DNA of 64,000 bases from Clostridia bacterium. Its GTDB lineage: Bacteria; Bacillota; Clostridia; TANB77; CAG-508. Shown piece after piece: positions 33,111 to 57,339 of this stretch. Under the pieces are notes generated by a model. The model saw nothing but the letters and a program-made list of their open reading frames with translations. It was not told where the DNA came from and ran no database searches. The position numbers and the translations under genes are program-made. The DNA lies in NCBI GenBank assembly GCA_017511265.1, contig JAFWKV010000001.1, positions 64,553 to 128,552 of the forward strand. Direction: 5' to 3'. Each line of letters opens with the position of its first letter. The first letter of the stretch is position 1.

Positions 33111-33133
33111 TTTTTCTCCTTTCGATGGTTAAT

Positions 33134-33424
33134 GGGCGTGTCAATGGGGACGGGTTTAATTGACACACTGATGATTTTTGGGTTGGTGTGAAAAAGTATC
33201 ACTTGAATAGCACTCTTATTGTTAAAAAATGAAGACCGCGTAGGCGGAGCGAAGCGTAGTCGGCTGGAGCTTTCGTTTCATTAATACATTTCAATGAAAA
33301 AAAGCGACAACAAGGTCGTAATGTTTAACAATAAGAATGATACTCTAGTTGATGCTTTTTCACCCCAACCCAAAAATCATCATCAGTGTGTCATTTAAGC
33401 CCGTCCCCATTGACACACGTCCCC
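33134..33424. repeat. Hairpin element HP-B1 (family B): imperfect ~100-nt arms plus conserved core
   Basis: Arms contain inverted copies of the 31-nt motif TGTGTCAATTAAGCCCGTCCCCATTGACACA (33137-33167 reversed, 33387-33417). Core 33234-33317 is about 90% identical to 52641-52726. The right arm encodes the last 12 codons of dpaA. Confidence 0.9.
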
Positions 33425-34266
33425 AAAATTAAATCAATTGTTCTTTTTATATGTTCTGCTGCAGTAAGTGGAGCAACCTTGCCAGGTAAAGCCAAAGCCC
33501 ATTCAAAATTAATATCTAATTCTTTTGCTGCGTCTCTATCAACGCCTCCAGGTCTTGAGGCTAAATCTATAACTAAGCAATCTTTCTTAATCATTTTCAA
33601 TTTGTTTCTATTTAAAATCAATGTTGGAGGAGTATTAATTATAATGTCATATTCTTTCAAGTTATCTCCTAATTCATTTATATTTGCAACTTTATAGCCA
33701 GATGCCTCAATCCAAGCAAATGCTTCTTGTTTTCTTGCTGCACATGTTACATCTGCTGACAGTTTTGCAAATTTATCGGCTACAACTTTTGCTACTCTGC
33801 CAAAGCCTAGTATTAGCACTTTGCTTCCATGTATTATTTTTTGTGTCCTTCTTATTGCAATTTCAACAGTTCCTTCTGCTGTAGCTATTGTATTTAAAAC
33901 TGCAAGGCTTTCACTTTGCATTAAATCTTTTACAATTACATCATAAGTTTGTGCAATGTCATATATTTCTTTTGAAATTGCACCAGCTATTAATGTTTTG
34001 CCTTTAGCATTTTGCATTAATACTTTTATTGGTATCTTATCTTCTCCATCTTCTGTATATACATTTTCTCCATCTTTTGAAAAAGGAATAGGCCCGATTA
34101 TCACTTCTGATTTCTTCACCGCATTTTCTAAATTATTTGCCTGTATTATGTGTTCATTTTTGAAATTGTTTTGCCCATACACAATAACCTCATTTTCTTC
34201 TGACATCATCTTCGCCAAGTATACCATTCTTTTGTCTCCACCTATTATTGCTATTTTTCTATCCAT
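33391..34266 (-). CDS. dpaA: Dipicolinate synthase subunit A
   Basis: MDRKIAIIGGDKRMVYLAKMM, Rossmann motif VLILGFGRVAKVVADKF; overall SpoVFA-like pattern. No dpaB-like gene is adjacent. Confidence 0.75.
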   Translation of the reverse strand: MDRKIAIIGGDKRMVYLAKMMSEENEVIVYGQNNFKNEHIIQANNLENAVKKSEVIIGPIPFSKDGENVYTEDGEDKIPIKVLMQNAKGKTLIAGAISKEIYDIAQTYDVIVKDLMQSESLAVLNTIATAEGTVEIAIRRTQKIIHGSKVLILGFGRVAKVVADKFAKLSADVTCAARKQEAFAWIEASGYKVANINELGDNLKEYDIIINTPPTLILNRNKLKMIKKDCLVIDLASRPGGVDRDAAKELDINFEWALALPGKVAPLTAAEHIKRTIDLILGTCVNGDGLK

Positions 34267-51992: not shown

Positions 51993-52448
51993 TTAGCTAG
52001 TTGCATTTTTATTTTTTACGCGTATACAATTTTGGCATTGGTTGTTTCCTAAATCAAAATTACATTTTAAATCATCTAATCCTAGTACTTTTATTATATA
52101 ATTTTCTAATTTTGAAACTGTTTCTTCAGATATAGCATGCTTCATTGCTATTGCTTCTTTTTCAGCAGTTTGATTATCAACATCAATTATTTGAATTAAA
52201 AATAATTTTAAAATATCTTCTCTCTTGACTGCTGATTTTGCCAACTTCTCTCCATCTTCAGTAATTTCTATATTACCATAAGCTTCATATAAAATAAGTC
52301 CTTCATCTTTTAAACATTTAAGTGCTCGATTTACACTAGGCTTACTACAATTAAGCTTTTTTGATATATCTGTAACGCGAACTTGTCCCTCACTGTTTTT
52401 CAATATATATATTGTTTTTAAATATTCTTCTAAAGAATTTGTCAGCAT
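51993..52448 (-). CDS. DtxR/MntR-family metal-dependent transcriptional repressor
   Basis: LEEYLKTIYIL, VRVTDISKKLNCSKPSVNRALKCLKDEGLI winged-HTH, metal-binding/dimerisation helix region. Heads the suf operon. Confidence 0.8.
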   Translation of the reverse strand: MLTNSLEEYLKTIYILKNSEGQVRVTDISKKLNCSKPSVNRALKCLKDEGLILYEAYGNIEITEDGEKLAKSAVKREDILKLFLIQIIDVDNQTAEKEAIAMKHAISEETVSKLENYIIKVLGLDDLKCNFDLGNNQCQNCIRVKNKNATS

Positions 52449-52464
52449 ACATTCACCTCACATT

Positions 52465-52482
52465 TGTTAGCTTACCCTAACA
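52465..52482. promoter_or_regulatory. Candidate DtxR-type operator upstream of the repressor-suf operon
   Basis: TGTTAGCTTACCCTAACA: GTTAG-N6-CTAAC inverted repeat resembling the core of the DtxR box (TTAGGTTAGCCTAACCTAA), 17-34 nt upstream of the repressor start. Confidence 0.4.
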
Positions 52483-52538
52483 TTATAAAGGTTATACTTC
52501 AATTTGTCAAGAGGAATACAACTATTTTGGACGGGGGA

Positions 52539-52827
52539 TGCTGTCTTTTGGGACGGGGCAAAAAAACATCACCTGCTGTCTTTTGGGACGGGGTTAAAAA
52601 ACATCATCATCTCCATTAGCTATATTTATTAAAAAATGTAGACCGCGTAGGCGGAGCGAAGCGTAGTCGTCTGGAGCTTTCTCTTCACTAATATAAATTT
52701 CAATGAAAGAAAGCGACAACAAGGTCGTAATGTTTAATAAATATAACCAATGGAGATGATGATGTTTTTTAACCCCGTCCCAAAAGACAGCAGGTGATGT
52801 TTTTTTGCCCCGTCCCAAAAGACAGCA
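52539..52827. repeat. Hairpin element HP-B2 (family B): ~92-bp near-perfect arms plus conserved core
   Basis: Arms pair from 52539/52827 inward with only two mismatches (52618.52748, 52620.52746). Each arm carries two copies of CTGTCTTTTGGGACGGGG (52541-52558, 52576-52593; reversed at 52773-52790, 52808-52825). Core is 52641-52726. Confidence 0.95.
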
Positions 52828-52834
52828 AAATGCA

Positions 52835-53728
52835 TCATCTTTCATTGTATTTTTCTAATTCAGTTTGAAATTCTTCAAGTAATCTGGCAAGTCTACTTTG
52901 TTGTTCTATATCTTCAGCTCTTTCCTGTAAACTTGTAATTCTTCTTATATAAGCATCAGCATTTTGCATTATTTCTTCTCTATTCCTTTGTCTATAAAAG
53001 TCAATAGCTTCTCTTGATGATGCAAATCTGCTATCTCCACTTTGCCATACAAGTTCAGGCTTATCTTCAACATAGCCACGTTTAAATGCACAAGTTCTAG
53101 AAATAAGGTTTCTTCTTTCTATTTCATCTAATGTTTCTAGCATTCTAACATATGAGTCATCATGATATCTAGGTTGAACAATACGAGGTGTTAAGCCATT
53201 TTCTCTATAGTACTGTTCACGCTCATAACACGATAATAAGCTTTCATATCTATCTACCGCTAGAATCGCCACATCAATATCATATCCTCCATTTTTTTGA
53301 TAATCTAGTATTGACAAATATCCATCCTTGCTTGCAAAAGTACCTTCTTGAACAACATTTACCTTTAAATCTACTCCTTTTCTCCTTAAGTGTTCATCTA
53401 ATGCAGGTCTAATAAATCTTTGCAAAATTTGAAAGCTGTCATCTGGATAATGTCTCATTATCTCTGCATAATGTTCATGATAAGGTCCAATATTATCTGG
53501 ATTAAATTCTACAAATGATGCTAATCTACCAGTATTTTGTCCTTGATTAATAACATATGTTTTTAACCCAGTTTTACCAGCTCCTGGCTGAGCAACAACA
53601 AATACTGAATATGGATGTTTACTTGGCTTACATGTCATAAACACACCCATTTCTGCTCTACTTAAGCTACTAATATATTCTTCTTCTGTTAAATCGTATT
53701 CTGAGCCTATTGGCATTTCTTCTTTCAT
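52835..53728 (-). CDS. Zeta-toxin-family kinase
   Basis: Walker A VVAQPGAGKTG, FNPDNIGPYHEHY, VVQEGTF, helical C-terminal tail. Preferred start is ATG 53728, preceded by GGAGG; the ORF track starts at 53740. Visibly more G+C than its neighbours. Confidence 0.75.
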   Translation of the reverse strand: MKEEMPIGSEYDLTEEEYISSLSRAEMGVFMTCKPSKHPYSVFVVAQPGAGKTGLKTYVINQGQNTGRLASFVEFNPDNIGPYHEHYAEIMRHYPDDSFQILQRFIRPALDEHLRRKGVDLKVNVVQEGTFASKDGYLSILDYQKNGGYDIDVAILAVDRYESLLSCYEREQYYRENGLTPRIVQPRYHDDSYVRMLETLDEIERRNLISRTCAFKRGYVEDKPELVWQSGDSRFASSREAIDFYRQRNREEIMQNADAYIRRITSLQERAEDIEQQSRLARLLEEFQTELEKYNER

Positions 53729-53739
53729 ACAATCCTCCA

Positions 53740-53943
53740 TTATTTATTTTTGACTTCTTCCAAATATACTGTTAGAACTTTTTCTATTATCTGTTCATTA
53801 TTATTGTATATTTCATTTTTTTCATCATATAATATTTGCATATTTTCTTTGAATTTATTAAAATCTTTTTCTTGATTATTTTTTATTGAATTTGCAATCT
53901 TTAAATTAATTATATATAATGCTAGTTCTTTTCTATTATTCAT
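53740..53943 (-). CDS. Small helical protein, candidate epsilon-like antitoxin
   Basis: 67-aa K/E/N-rich ORF whose stop abuts or overlaps the zeta start (TAATG). No sequence similarity recognised; call rests on position only. Confidence 0.4.
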   Translation of the reverse strand: MNNRKELALYIINLKIANSIKNNQEKDFNKFKENMQILYDEKNEIYNNNEQIIEKVLTVYLEEVKNK

Positions 53944-53966
53944 ATTTCCTCCTAATAATCTCTTAA

Positions 53967-54428
53967 TTAGTCTATTAAAGTTGTTTCTTTTAATAATAGT
54001 ATATTTTCACAATTTTCGTCTATTTTTCTCAAAATTGATGGATCATCATCAATAAATATAATTTGCGAATCTTTTTGTTCTAAACTTGTAATAAATTCAT
54101 ATTTTAAATCAATTGCATTTTTTTCAAAATTATATTGCTCTCTAGATAATATATTTCTATTTTCTTTTTTAAAAAAAGGTGCAAACTCATCTAGCCATTT
54201 ATTTTTTTGTTCAATTCCCTCTGACATTCTTGTAACTGATAAAATATGTAATTTAACATTTGGCATTTTAGAAATTTCTTCTAACTTAGAAAGAATACTA
54301 ACTAGAGGTCTCTTTTTGTCATATCTTGCTGGTACCCCAACTTCATAGTCTGCAATAACTCCATCCATATCAACATACATGTCTACATTTTTATTGTCTA
54401 AATCTTTTAAAATATCAAAAATAATCAT
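53967..54428 (-). CDS. HAD-superfamily 5'(3')-deoxyribonucleotidase-like protein (NT5C family)
   Basis: Motif I VDMDGVIADY near the N-terminus, late IFIDDD motif, about 150 aa. RBS AGGAGA 7 nt upstream. Confidence 0.6.
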   Translation of the reverse strand: MIIFDILKDLDNKNVDMYVDMDGVIADYEVGVPARYDKKRPLVSILSKLEEISKMPNVKLHILSVTRMSEGIEQKNKWLDEFAPFFKKENRNILSREQYNFEKNAIDLKYEFITSLEQKDSQIIFIDDDPSILRKIDENCENILLLKETTLID

Positions 54429-54519
54429 ATTATATTCTCCTAACTTTTATAATATCTTTTGCTATTATAACACCTTAATTACTTTTTTGCAAATTTCGAT
54501 GGATTTTTTATATTTTTTA

Positions 54520-54528
54520 TGCTAAAAT
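54520..54528 (+). promoter_or_regulatory. Extended -10 element upstream of the RelA/SpoT-like gene
   Basis: TGcTAAAAT about 28 nt upstream of ATG 54556. The -35 region is weak (TGGATT). Confidence 0.3.
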
Positions 54529-54555
54529 ATTGTGTTGGTGGAGGTGAATTACTAT

Positions 54556-56002
54556 ATGTCATTAGATAGTAACACATTTAGAGAACGAAATAAACAACAT
54601 CCTATTAGAAAAAACGCATTAGAAAATTTTAGTAAAGTTACAAATTTTTCTGTAAGCAAAGATGTAAGAAGATATATGTATCAAGTTATGGCAACAATTG
54701 GCTTAGAGCTTGAGCGAAAATTCCCAAATACAGTACATTTTGATGATAACCGGTTTTAAAATGTTCGGTCGTATAAAATCTGAAAAGAGTACATCTGAAA
54801 AAAAAGCATCGAATATACAAGATTATGATGATAAATTTCAAACTGCTATAGAAGAGCAAAAAGACATACCTACAGAAGTAAGACCTATTTTTGATTTTTA
54901 TGCTTACAAATTAGTATGTCCTGAAATTACAAACTCTCATGATGTAATAAATACTGTAATTTCAGATATTTTAACTGATATTGGAAAACATTCACCCAAA
55001 TATCTATCATACATAACTGAATTAAAAAGTAGTATTGATATATCGCGTTTTCCTTCATTAGAATTTATTACTAACAATTTTTCAGATAAATATCCTAATT
55101 TAAAAGATAAGTTAGCAGCTGTAATGTATACTCAAAATGAGGCAAATAAAACTCAAGAATTTTTGGATAATGCTCCTAAAGATGTATCAAATCTTACTTA
55201 TTCAGAATATTATTCAAAAATAATTGAATGTTATCAACTTTTAATTAATCTTTCGTATGATGATTCTATTGAAGAATATACTCGTATTGCAAAATTAGCT
55301 AAGCAGTCTAGAGAGCAATTACATCAAATAATTGAACAAGGTAAAAGTCATCAAAAAATTGATAAACAGTTCCATAAAGAATACGGAGATACTTTAGAAA
55401 AACTATTAAAACATGTTTCAAAAAAGCGAACAAACAGGCTTGACCTAACAATTTGTGATTTGATGGTCTTCGATGTTTTAACTACTTGTGAATCATTAAA
55501 AAAGTTAGGAGTGTCTTATTCAAAGGATCCTACTAGAACTAAGAAAAAGAGGAAGCAAAATGGCTACATAGCAAATTTTTATAGTTTAGATATGCCAAAT
55601 GGATTAACATCTGAAATTCAATTACAATCACTTTATAGATATGAATATGGTGAGTATGGACCTGCAGCACATCATAAAATGGAAAATGGATTAAAGAAAA
55701 GAACTTTATTTAAAAGACCTAAAAACAAAAGTAAATATGCAGATTGGGCTGAGAAGCAATTTAAAGCATTACCTAGATATTTTACCTATAGAGGTAATGG
55801 TTATGTTGAAGTACATAGCACTCTTCAAAATTTTAGAAAATATTATGACTGCAAAGATAAAAGTGAGGTTCAAACATATGTTGAATTTATTGCACAGCAT
55901 GATGTTGATTTATTAGATAGCCATCTTATACAATTTTCTTTGGATGATACTTCTCCTTTAAATAAATCAACAAAAGCAAATAATTCCGCAGAAGAACGCT
56001 AA
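54556..56002 (+). CDS. Atypical RelA/SpoT-homologue (RSH) nucleotidyltransferase-like protein; needs a +1 frame change at 54754-54759
   Basis: ATG 54556 follows GGAGGTGA. FGRIKSEKSTSEKK, FDFYAYKLVC, NGYIANFYSL...SEIQLQS...AAHHKM follow the order of RelA_SpoT synthetase motifs but are degenerate, and about 190 aa are inserted between them. The N-terminal 67 codons end at TAA 54757-54759. Skipping one T restores ...DDNRFKMFGRIKS. Confidence 0.55.
54754..54759 (+). other. TTT_TAA site joining the two RSH reading frames
   Basis: CGG TTT TAA AAT G in frame 0. Re-pairing Phe-tRNA on the overlapping TTT (+1) gives AAA ATG TTC GGT CGT = KMFGR. Confidence 0.6.
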
Positions 56003-56207
56003 GAACAATTTTTATAAATAAATAATAACTCATATACTATATAAATATAGAATCGCATGAATGTTGAATTATAAATATATTTGGAACAAAACATAGCTGG
56101 GGTCTTCCTATTGGTCTTGTTCCGACAATATATTTATAATTCAACATTTATGCGATTCTATATTTATATAGTATATGAGTTATTATTTATTTATAAAAAT
56201 TGTTCTT
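56001..56207. repeat. Hairpin element HP-C2 (family C): ~81-bp arms with a single G.T mismatch
   Basis: 56001-56081 pairs with 56127-56207 (mismatch 56059.56149). Apex GGAACAA/TTGTTCC encloses AAAACATAGCTGGGGTCTTCCTA (56088-56110). The right arm contains the last 7 sense codons and stop of the SEDS gene. The left arm starts at the last base of the RSH stop codon. Confidence 0.95.
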
Positions 56208-57292
56208 TGTCGTTTGCTGCTTATATTAAGTAATAGTCCTATACATACAAAGCTTGTTATTAATGAGCTTCCTCCATAACTAATAAACAAAAGCGGTATA
56301 CCTGTAATTGGAAGCAATCCAATTGTCATACCTATATTTTCAGCCATATGGAAGAAGAAAATTCCAGCAATGCCTATAGCAATATATGATCCCAAATTAT
56401 CATGTGCAGTTTTTGCTACATAAATTGCCTTTGTTATCAGAAATACATATAAAATAACAATTAAAGCAGCCATAATAAATCCTAATTCTTCTCCAATTGC
56501 CGCAAAAATGAAGTCTGTAGTTTTTGGATGTAAATAGCCTAATTGAGTTTGATTTCCTTGTAATAACCCCATTCCTAAAAGTTCACCTGCACCAACTGCT
56601 AATTTAGATTGAATTATATTATAGCCTGCTCCTCTTGGATCTAGCTCTGGATTTAAATATACATTTATTCTATTTTTTGCATAATCTGGTAAAACGAAAT
56701 TATATATTAGCGGTACAGCGACTGCAACAAGTACTGCTACAGTAATTATATATTTTTTATCTATTCCTGCTGTAAATAATATACATAATAATGCAATAAT
56801 GTATGCCATAGCAGTTCCATTGTCTGGTTCTTTAACAACTAGTCCTATCGGAATTCCAGCTATTAATAATATAAGTAATAACCATCCAAATTTATTTATT
56901 CTACTTATTCCTCTTTCTTGTATTTTCGAGATAGTAAAACTAAGAACTAATATTAAAAAAATTTTTGTAAATTCTGCTGGCTGAAATGTAAATGAACCTA
57001 AGTCAAACCAGCTTCTTGCTCCATTTACTGGCGTGGTAAATAAAACTCCCACCAGTAATGCACAAAAAAATACATACCATATCGGTGAAACTTTAGCTAT
57101 TACTTCATAATCAATTATTCCTACTATTAGCATTGCTACTACACTTATTCCAAGCCATATTGCTTGTTTTTTTAATTCTGAAAATTCTGTATTATACGAA
57201 ACTGTATATAATGCTATCATTCCAATTATAGTCAATGCTACTGCACAAATTAAAATTGCCCATTCTGTATTTTTTAGTCGTTGTCTTCCCAT
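56183..57292 (-). CDS. SEDS-family peptidoglycan glycosyltransferase (FtsW/RodA/SpoVE)
   Basis: 10-TM protein with GARSWFDLG, FQPAEFTKI, PDNGTA, LPITGIPLLFISYGGSS. Start at ATG 57292, preceded by AAAGGAGAAAAA. Confidence 0.85.
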   Translation of the reverse strand: MGRQRLKNTEWAILICAVALTIIGMIALYTVSYNTEFSELKKQAIWLGISVVAMLIVGIIDYEVIAKVSPIWYVFFCALLVGVLFTTPVNGARSWFDLGSFTFQPAEFTKIFLILVLSFTISKIQERGISRINKFGWLLLILLIAGIPIGLVVKEPDNGTAMAYIIALLCILFTAGIDKKYIITVAVLVAVAVPLIYNFVLPDYAKNRINVYLNPELDPRGAGYNIIQSKLAVGAGELLGMGLLQGNQTQLGYLHPKTTDFIFAAIGEELGFIMAALIVILYVFLITKAIYVAKTAHDNLGSYIAIGIAGIFFFHMAENIGMTIGLLPITGIPLLFISYGGSSLITSFVCIGLLLNISSKRQRTIFINK

Positions 57293-57339
57293 TTTTTCTC
57301 CTTTATGATTTTGGGAAACTGCCAAAATCATCTCTTTTA

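Follow-up and report, generated by a model that had tools for sequence, protein, structure and literature searches.

Introduction

The zeta and PezT kinases form a major family of toxin-antitoxin systems, in which sugar hydroxyls of nucleotide-sugars or of NAD are phosphorylated by the toxin. To our knowledge, the only antidotes known for these kinases are proteins that bind them, and clearance of the phosphorylated product has not been established. Enzymatic antidotes are found in other systems, such as DarT/DarG and toxSAS with the small alarmone hydrolases, where the product or modification made by the toxin is undone by an enzyme antitoxin. Here we analyze a locus in which a zeta-family kinase gene shares an operon with genes for a small protein and a HAD phosphatase. 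It lies within a stretch of 64,000 nucleotides (nt) from a Clostridia bacterium (GenBank assembly GCA_017511265.1, contig JAFWKV010000001.1, positions 64,553 to 128,552), which we call the window and whose numbering is used throughout.

The locus had been flagged in a reading of the DNA letters without database searches (the sequence-only reading below), which placed its open reading frames (ORFs) correctly and grouped the zeta gene, the small ORF, the HAD gene and a divergent gene resembling RelA/SpoT homologs (RSH) as one accessory islet between the dtxR gene that heads the suf operon and a gene of the FtsW/RodA type. The explanation that we favor, with moderate confidence when taken as a whole, is that the locus combines two units with no relation to each other, an inserted three-gene cassette and a resident RSH-like gene, and that the cassette works by the mechanism proposed below.

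Results and Discussion

A zeta-family kinase with a phosphoesterase neighbor

The kinase gene (52835..53740, minus strand) encodes a putative toxin of 301 residues, or 297 from the next ATG, and its earlier identification as a zeta-type P-loop kinase holds at the family level. The protein matches Pfam Zeta_toxin (PF06414) over profile positions 10-187 of 199 with E = 2e-30 and 106.2 bits, against a cutoff of 22.3, and the profile of its subfamily retrieves only PezT (4e-16) and zeta (2e-15) from the PDB. Lys56 of the Walker A motif, Asp82, Arg174 and Arg186 are invariant in 37 sequences and align with their zeta/PezT counterparts, the two arginines with those of the zeta segments ERYE and ARATP and Asp82 with zeta Asp67, for which a role as catalytic base has been proposed (PMC5923241). 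The subfamily alignment, in which the window copy is itself included, has 33 invariant columns, and the window protein keeps them all.

Directly 5' of the kinase gene is an ORF for a 67-residue helical protein, a putative epsilon-like antitoxin (53740..53943, minus strand), the stop codon of which overlaps the zeta start in the sequence TAATG. A conserved ORF of 62-79 residues occupies this position in nearly all loci of the subfamily that have enough upstream sequence. The small protein shows no similarity in Pfam or the PDB to epsilon, PezA or any other entry, and its profile gives only chance helical matches in the PDB.

Zeta-centered loci from a metagenome scan were dereplicated at 90% identity into 24 clusters, of which five lie on contigs too short to reveal a partner. 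A phosphoesterase gene adjoins zeta in 17 of the 19 informative loci: 10 have a HAD gene, which may be upstream, downstream or convergent, seven have a gene for a PHP protein, and two (L108 and L125) have neither. In most of the loci without HAD, the PHP gene, encoding about 294 residues, is located directly 3' of zeta after a gap of 10-26 nt, and in a cluster of human-gut loci (L110-L124) a tblastn and hidden Markov model check shows it overlapping the 3' end of zeta. The PHP protein carries the N-terminal signature DLHxHTxxSDG...ITDHD and scores 36-41 bits against the Pfam PHP domain (cutoff 26.4); among named families it comes nearest to RNase RNM and 3',5'-nucleoside bisphosphate phosphatase, and among PDB entries to 9etk, 7ug9 and 2yb1. 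HAD-linked and PHP-linked loci fall into separate clades of a neighbor-joining tree of zeta, and the phosphoesterase link extends to a second type of kinase, zeta2, at 27% identity. That two phosphatase folds with no relation to each other take the same place in the operon, and do so in many flanking contexts, argues for a functional link between kinase and phosphatase, and we regard this alternation as the strongest evidence for such a link that gene neighborhoods provide.

The trio itself is also found elsewhere. In one locus (L012) the order is clpX, HAD, small ORF, zeta, a second small-zeta pair and an aminoacyl-tRNA synthetase gene, with identities to the window of 76% for HAD, 73% for the small protein and about 55% for zeta. 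Three other loci (L013, L047 and L098) read small ORF, zeta, HAD, thiF, polA, and a relative that retains an intact RSH-like gene reads clpX, small2, zeta2, HAD and the aminoacyl-tRNA synthetase gene. The HAD-small-zeta cassette varies between loci in chromosomal site and gene order, and the first position of the HAD gene in the window, to which the sequence-only reading had drawn attention, is a conserved feature and not an accident, since the trio recurs at these other sites. Zeta-linked HAD proteins occupy at least five separate places in the HAD tree. Seen from zeta the association is strong, and seen from HAD it is weak.

Two side observations concern the same loci. The two small-zeta pairs that stand in tandem behind a single HAD gene in L012 (4297-7242) differ from each other, and at the same site the related loci L019 and L174 have the second pair only, followed by a HAD gene of a different HAD clade. 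In four loci zeta is split into two ORFs and is a probable pseudogene (L015, 4562-5456; L017, 1291-2188; L097, 696-1664; L123, 1077-2032), with the small ORF and HAD or PHP intact beside it; from these sequences, the toxin gene appears to decay faster than its partner genes.

Among the papers searched, we found none on a zeta toxin linked to a HAD protein, phosphatase, nucleotidase or PHP protein, and the words "phosphatase" and "nucleotidase" are missing from a 2023 review of PezAT. The pairing of zeta with a phosphoesterase is apparently undescribed.

The HAD partner

The HAD gene (53967..54428, minus strand) encodes a capless phosphatase of 153 residues that is NT5C-like in sequence and resembles HisB-N and the 3'-phosphatase of T4 Pnkp in its predicted fold. 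The motifs DMDGV, S, K and DDD are conserved across 35 homologs, and Asp20, Asp22, Ser64, Lys109, Asp127 and Asp128 are invariant and correspond to motifs I-IV, with Ser64 and Lys109 assigned to motifs II and III by eye. The NT5C label of the sequence-only reading is to be taken with reserve, as the window protein reaches 18.6 bits against Pfam NT5C (PF06941), under the cutoff of 24.8. A precomputed match to PF06941 exists for many homologs at 55-60% identity, and the HAD profile finds the mitochondrial and cytosolic 5'(3')-deoxyribonucleotidases in the PDB at 4e-4.

The AlphaFold2 model, with a predicted local distance difference test score (pLDDT) of 87.7, has almost no cap domain. Foldseek ranks HisB-N and the T4 Pnkp 3'-phosphatase domain best (the latter with a template-modeling (TM) score of 0.54-0.59), followed by mitochondrial 5'(3')-deoxyribonucleotidases. 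NCBIfam and PHROGs give weak hints only, among them a match at 6e-4 to PHROG 415, "polynucleotide kinase". The HAD family comprises 868 clusters. On a distant branch of it, in metagenome-assembled genomes of Bacilli (L072-L085), a HAD protein of 165 residues heads a conserved five-gene block without zeta; the block encodes proteins of about 505, 218, 255, 165 and 530 residues.

Three genes inserted beside a resident gene

Both flanks of the cassette in the window align to the 143-nt intergenic region between dtxR and the RSH-like gene of three relatives (L001, L004 and L171), which reveals an insertion of about 2 kb with approximate boundaries at 52513..54495. The window remains alignable with this region up to about 52512, and the insertion has left intact the dtxR promoter on one side and, on the other, the -10 region of the RSH-like gene. 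The relatives L001-L004 and L171 have neither zeta nor the small ORF nor HAD in the corresponding interval. The inserted DNA consists of a palindromic element, the HAD-small-zeta operon and a promoter-like site for that operon (54464..54493, minus strand; TTGCAA-17-TATAAT with a TG extension, a consensus match only). The insertion carries three genes, and the proposed islet of four must be reduced by the RSH-like gene.

By base composition, the trio does not stand out as foreign against the mean of the AT-rich window, 27.5% G+C. The sequence-only reading had noted that zeta is visibly richer in G+C, which is correct at 32.9% and carries little weight, as 6% of 900-nt windows are equally high; the G+C contents of the small ORF (16.7%) and HAD (24.2%) fall under the mean. 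Collections of phages, plasmids and viral contigs contain no close relatives of zeta, the maximum identity being 29%.

The RSH-like gene, on the plus strand, is not a single ORF. An N-terminal piece of 67 codons (54556..54759, ending in the TAA at 54757-54759) aligns to residues 1-67 of intact homologs of 477-490 residues, and a C-terminal piece of 413 codons (54761..56002) holds all of the candidate catalytic motifs together with a helical insertion of about 200 residues. At the junction, TTT-TAA-A-ATG (54754..54763), the window has one base more than three intact relatives in a DNA alignment. When joined, the two pieces give a protein of 489 residues that aligns end to end, and continuously across the frameshift site, with 24 homologs of 454-545 residues at 38-61% identity; all 44 invariant columns of the family, in an alignment that includes the window copy, hold over both pieces. 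The same 67 + 413 split is present in seven of seven same-species contigs fetched from different samples; it is not a sequencing error. As for the site itself, if the P-site tRNA slipped by +1 on UUU_U while UAA occupied the A site, the product would read F-K-M-F-G-R, the exact family consensus; UUU-UAA-A-AUG resembles a programmed +1 frameshift of the prfB type, with no Shine-Dalgarno-like stimulator visible upstream.

The label RSH holds as remote similarity only. The frameshift-corrected window protein matches RelA_SpoT (PF04607) at E = 0.15, and 13 of 25 members match it at E <= 1, with a best value of 2.3e-7. An AlphaFold model of the intact homolog P0004 (pLDDT 89, predicted TM score 0.87) shows a beta-strand core broken by the helical insertion of about 200 residues, and its top Foldseek matches in the PDB are all synthetase domains of Rel, RelA and SAS, with E values of only 0.06-1. 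By eye, an invariant RxKSxxSxxxK, a strand with D-x-x-[AG]-x-K, and GY, ExQ and H can be matched with the synthetase motifs. Canonical RSH proteins escape the family profile, both among 1.84 billion representatives and in the PDB, where the sole match of the profile, the telomerase protein p65, is spurious. Taken together, sequence and model point to a putative, remote nucleotidyltransferase of the RelA/SpoT-synthetase type. The family is very rare, with 27 clusters among 5.8 billion proteins and 71 proteins at E <= 1e-3 in an exhaustive profile search of the 1.84 billion representatives. None of its relatives is on the viral contigs scanned.

The neighborhood of this gene is that of a resident. 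The suf operon, dtxR, the RSH-like gene, rodA and truB stand together around P0004 (L001-L003; 58% identity to the window) and P0007 (L004; 56%), and P0018 (L171; 45%) keeps dtxR-suf on its left with different genes on its right. At 38% identity, P0027 (L173) has truB, rodA and the RSH-like gene on one strand, with the RSH-like gene 15 nt downstream of rodA, and P0025 (L172; 46%) is in a different context. Neither zeta nor HAD was found in any of these loci (L001-L004 and L171-L173), and conversely the RSH-like gene occurs in none of about 150 zeta or HAD loci of other species. We conclude from these comparisons that the RSH-like gene is a resident that was present before the insertion and has no part in the cassette. 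No conserved antitoxin-like neighbor of it is seen in the loci compared, and the protein does not behave like toxSAS. Separately, the persistent linkage of the family to rodA-truB and dtxR-suf hints at a role tied to cell-envelope growth or iron-sulfur metabolism.

Proposed mechanism and alternatives

We propose that the small protein and the kinase would constitute an epsilon/zeta-like type II toxin-antitoxin pair, in which the small protein would inhibit the presumably toxic kinase by binding. The linked phosphoesterase, to judge from gene neighborhoods, would remove phosphate from the nucleotide or nucleotide-sugar that the kinase has phosphorylated, and this would limit or reset intoxication. 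Characterized relatives of the HAD and PHP partners hydrolyze nucleotide phosphomonoesters, notably 3'-phosphates, so that dephosphorylation of the kinase product is their most likely role. As far as HAD and zeta are concerned, the enzymatic partner suggested by the sequence-only reading is therefore plausible. In its full form, the cassette would be an undescribed three-part toxin-antitoxin architecture, composed of a small inhibitor, zeta and a required enzyme, HAD and PHP being interchangeable in this role, that acts on the kinase product, either resetting the cell or burning ATP, and possibly with a new substrate such as a nucleotide 3'-phosphate. We put this architecture forward tentatively.

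Several observations weigh against the proposed mechanism. The subfamily motif QEGTF[AG]S replaces the GTxR of zeta and PezT. GTxR would mark UDP-GlcNAc kinases, a meaning for which three papers gave no confirmation; should it hold, the substrate of the subfamily may differ. The small protein has no detectable similarity to epsilon or PezA, and the constant presence of a product-reversing enzyme together with a protein antitoxin in one operon looks redundant. From the HAD side, zeta adjoins in only about 5 of 77 species-representative HAD loci, so that about 93% are without zeta; HAD has an existence of its own, and zeta pairs might just be prone to insert next to it. Finally, L016 and L021 share their flanking genes and differ in the toxin pair, as if HAD were resident and the pair had been inserted beside it.

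The HAD loci without zeta and the comparison of L016 with L021 also suit an ordinary epsilon/zeta-type pair whose phosphoesterase is an unrelated housekeeping nucleotidase, serving as an insertion spot or a hitch-hiking partner, and the intact HAD or PHP genes beside split zeta genes, where the phosphatase has outlived the toxin, fit such a pair as well. What makes this explanation unlikely is the adjacency of a phosphoesterase in 17 of 19 informative loci, which involves two folds, three arrangements and many contexts, and the finding that in the window the three genes of the trio reached a new site together. In addition, a pure insertion hotspot would leave the presence of PHP in the position of HAD unexplained.

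The same adjacency data, together with the tight spacing and co-transcription of the genes, could be read as an ATP-burning futile cycle, run by kinase and phosphatase once the small inhibitor is lost, in which the phosphatase would enhance the growth arrest and not cure it. Two papers describe zeta as a UDP-GlcNAc-dependent ATPase that lowers ATP pools (PMC5481361, PMC6356619). HAD is common without zeta, however, as would be expected of a general nucleotidase more than of an enzyme dedicated to such a cycle, and we consider the futile cycle distinctly improbable.

We judge it very improbable that the cassette is a split, Pnkp-like module for healing nucleic-acid ends, with a P-loop 5'-kinase and a 3'-phosphatase, and not a toxin system. 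The T4 Pnkp domain among the best matches of the HAD model, the hit to PHROG 415 and the presence of RNase RNM among the nearest families of the PHP partner all speak for such a module. The kinase itself speaks against it, as its profile finds PezT and zeta in the PDB and no polynucleotide kinases, as does the small, translationally coupled upstream ORF, which is typical of toxin-antitoxin pairs, and no ligase or Hen1-type partners are nearby in the loci compared.

The weakest proposal, that HAD, the small ORF, zeta and the RSH-like gene are a single nucleotide-based toxin/antidote or abortive-infection module, draws on their adjacency and divergent transcription in this species and on the nucleotide-related nature of all three enzymes, and is scarcely credible given that the RSH-like gene stands beside dtxR-suf (45-58% identity) or downstream of truB-rodA (38%) without zeta or HAD, is absent from the roughly 150 zeta and HAD loci of other species, is frameshifted here, and that PADLOC gives no matches. 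The sequence-only reading had made its combination depend on co-occurrence of the four families across genomes; HAD and zeta do co-occur, the RSH-like gene does not co-occur with them, and for that gene the idea of one system is refuted. Its suggestion of abortive infection or defense also finds no backing, as none of the five ORFs matches a PADLOC-DB 2.0 family at E <= 0.1 and close relatives on phages, plasmids and viral contigs are missing.

Repeat elements and flanking genes

Both of the hairpins said to bound the islet are real. The first is the palindromic element at one end of the insertion (52539..52827, 289 nt), the 95-nt arms of which are 98% complementary; each arm consists of two tandem units of 33-35 nt with TTTGGGACGGGG. 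Its center measures 99 nt and has a second copy at ~33222-33328, within a second palindromic element of about 300 nt (~33125-33425) whose arm sequences differ from those of the first; compared over 105 nt, the two centers are 92% identical. The arms of both copies are self-complementary and contain GGGACGGG-like motifs. Metagenome contigs of the same species break at the 52539-52827 palindrome. The two-copy element could be a mobile element resembling a miniature inverted-repeat transposable element (MITE), or a structured RNA.

The second long inverted repeat (55988..56220), with 94-nt arms that are 93% complementary, is located between the RSH-like gene and rodA/ftsW, whose 3' ends converge there, and extends into the last codons of both. 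It is seen in every same-species contig that reaches this point, and in relatives the gap between the two genes is only 30 nt. Rfam matches on the palindromes, to the miRNA precursor families MIR2670, MIR5998, MIR8562 and mir-548 of plants and animals, were rejected as generic long-hairpin matches below the gathering score.

On the left, the insertion is bordered by the gene that heads the suf operon and encodes an iron-dependent repressor of the DtxR type (51993..52448, minus strand; Pfam Fe_dep_repress 1.6e-15, Fe_dep_repr_C 1.1e-12); in relatives, this gene likewise stands beside the RSH-like gene. Its promoter-like site, TTGACA-17-TATAAT (52482..52510, minus strand), matches the consensus at 12 of 12 positions. 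Just upstream of the gene, a palindrome like a DtxR/IdeR box, TTAGCTTACCCTAAC (52466-52482 in the window, ~7872-7890 in L001), is kept in relatives, which suggests autoregulation of the dtxR-suf operon. On the right is the gene for the FtsW/RodA/SpoVE-family protein (56183..57331, minus strand; Pfam 6.5e-88), a conserved, syntenic neighbor of the RSH-like gene.

Significance

The link of a zeta clade to phosphatases irrespective of their fold leads to a testable hypothesis, either product reversal or a kinase/phosphatase cycle, and may identify the substrate of the clade. An unexplained phosphatase activity has been reported in zeta assays (PMC5923241). For the RSH-like gene, a false lead has been removed, namely its membership in the module, and attention has been drawn to a very rare family of RelA/SpoT-like proteins whose genes keep synteny with rodA and suf.

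Comparison with known systems

The RSH-like protein has invariant residues that align by eye with the motifs of RSH synthetases; 13 of 25 members match RelA_SpoT in Pfam, and Rel, RelA and SAS are the top Foldseek matches. It differs from RSH synthetases in the helical insertion of about 200 residues that splits its domain and in having no hydrolase or TGS/ACT domain. Compared with toxSAS, its gene is without a conserved antitoxin-like neighbor and retains housekeeping synteny across 38-58% identity.

The HAD partner shares the DxDGV, S, K and DDD motifs with NT5C and the capless HAD proteins, along with a weak similarity to 5'(3')-deoxyribonucleotidases and the fold match to HisB-N and T4 Pnkp, whereas at 153 residues it is much shorter than NT5C, has almost no cap and scores below the Pfam cutoff. 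With DarT/DarG and toxSAS, the cassette would share, by analogy, the logic of a hydrolase next to the toxin that removes the toxic product. The families involved are unrelated, however, the cassette has in addition a small antitoxin that presumably acts by binding, and the role of its hydrolase is proposed from gene neighborhoods alone.

Among known systems, the cassette is also close to epsilon/zeta and PezAT. It has in common with them a clear Zeta_toxin kinase, in which the Walker A motif, the catalytic Asp and two Arg residues align, and a small upstream ORF that is translationally coupled to the kinase; like omega-epsilon-zeta, it is a three-gene operon. Identity between the kinase and annotated plasmid zeta toxins is low, about 25-29%, and the kinase has GTF[AG]S where zeta and PezT have GTxR, and the small protein is without sequence similarity to epsilon or PezA. 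In omega-epsilon-zeta of pSM19035 the first gene encodes the ribbon-helix-helix repressor Omega, while in the cassette it is HAD, with no Omega_Repress or helix-turn-helix match in any ORF, and the helix-turn-helix repressor PezA of Streptococcus pneumoniae is likewise without a counterpart. What the cassette has as its third gene, and what sets it apart from epsilon/zeta and PezAT, is a phosphoesterase, either HAD or PHP.

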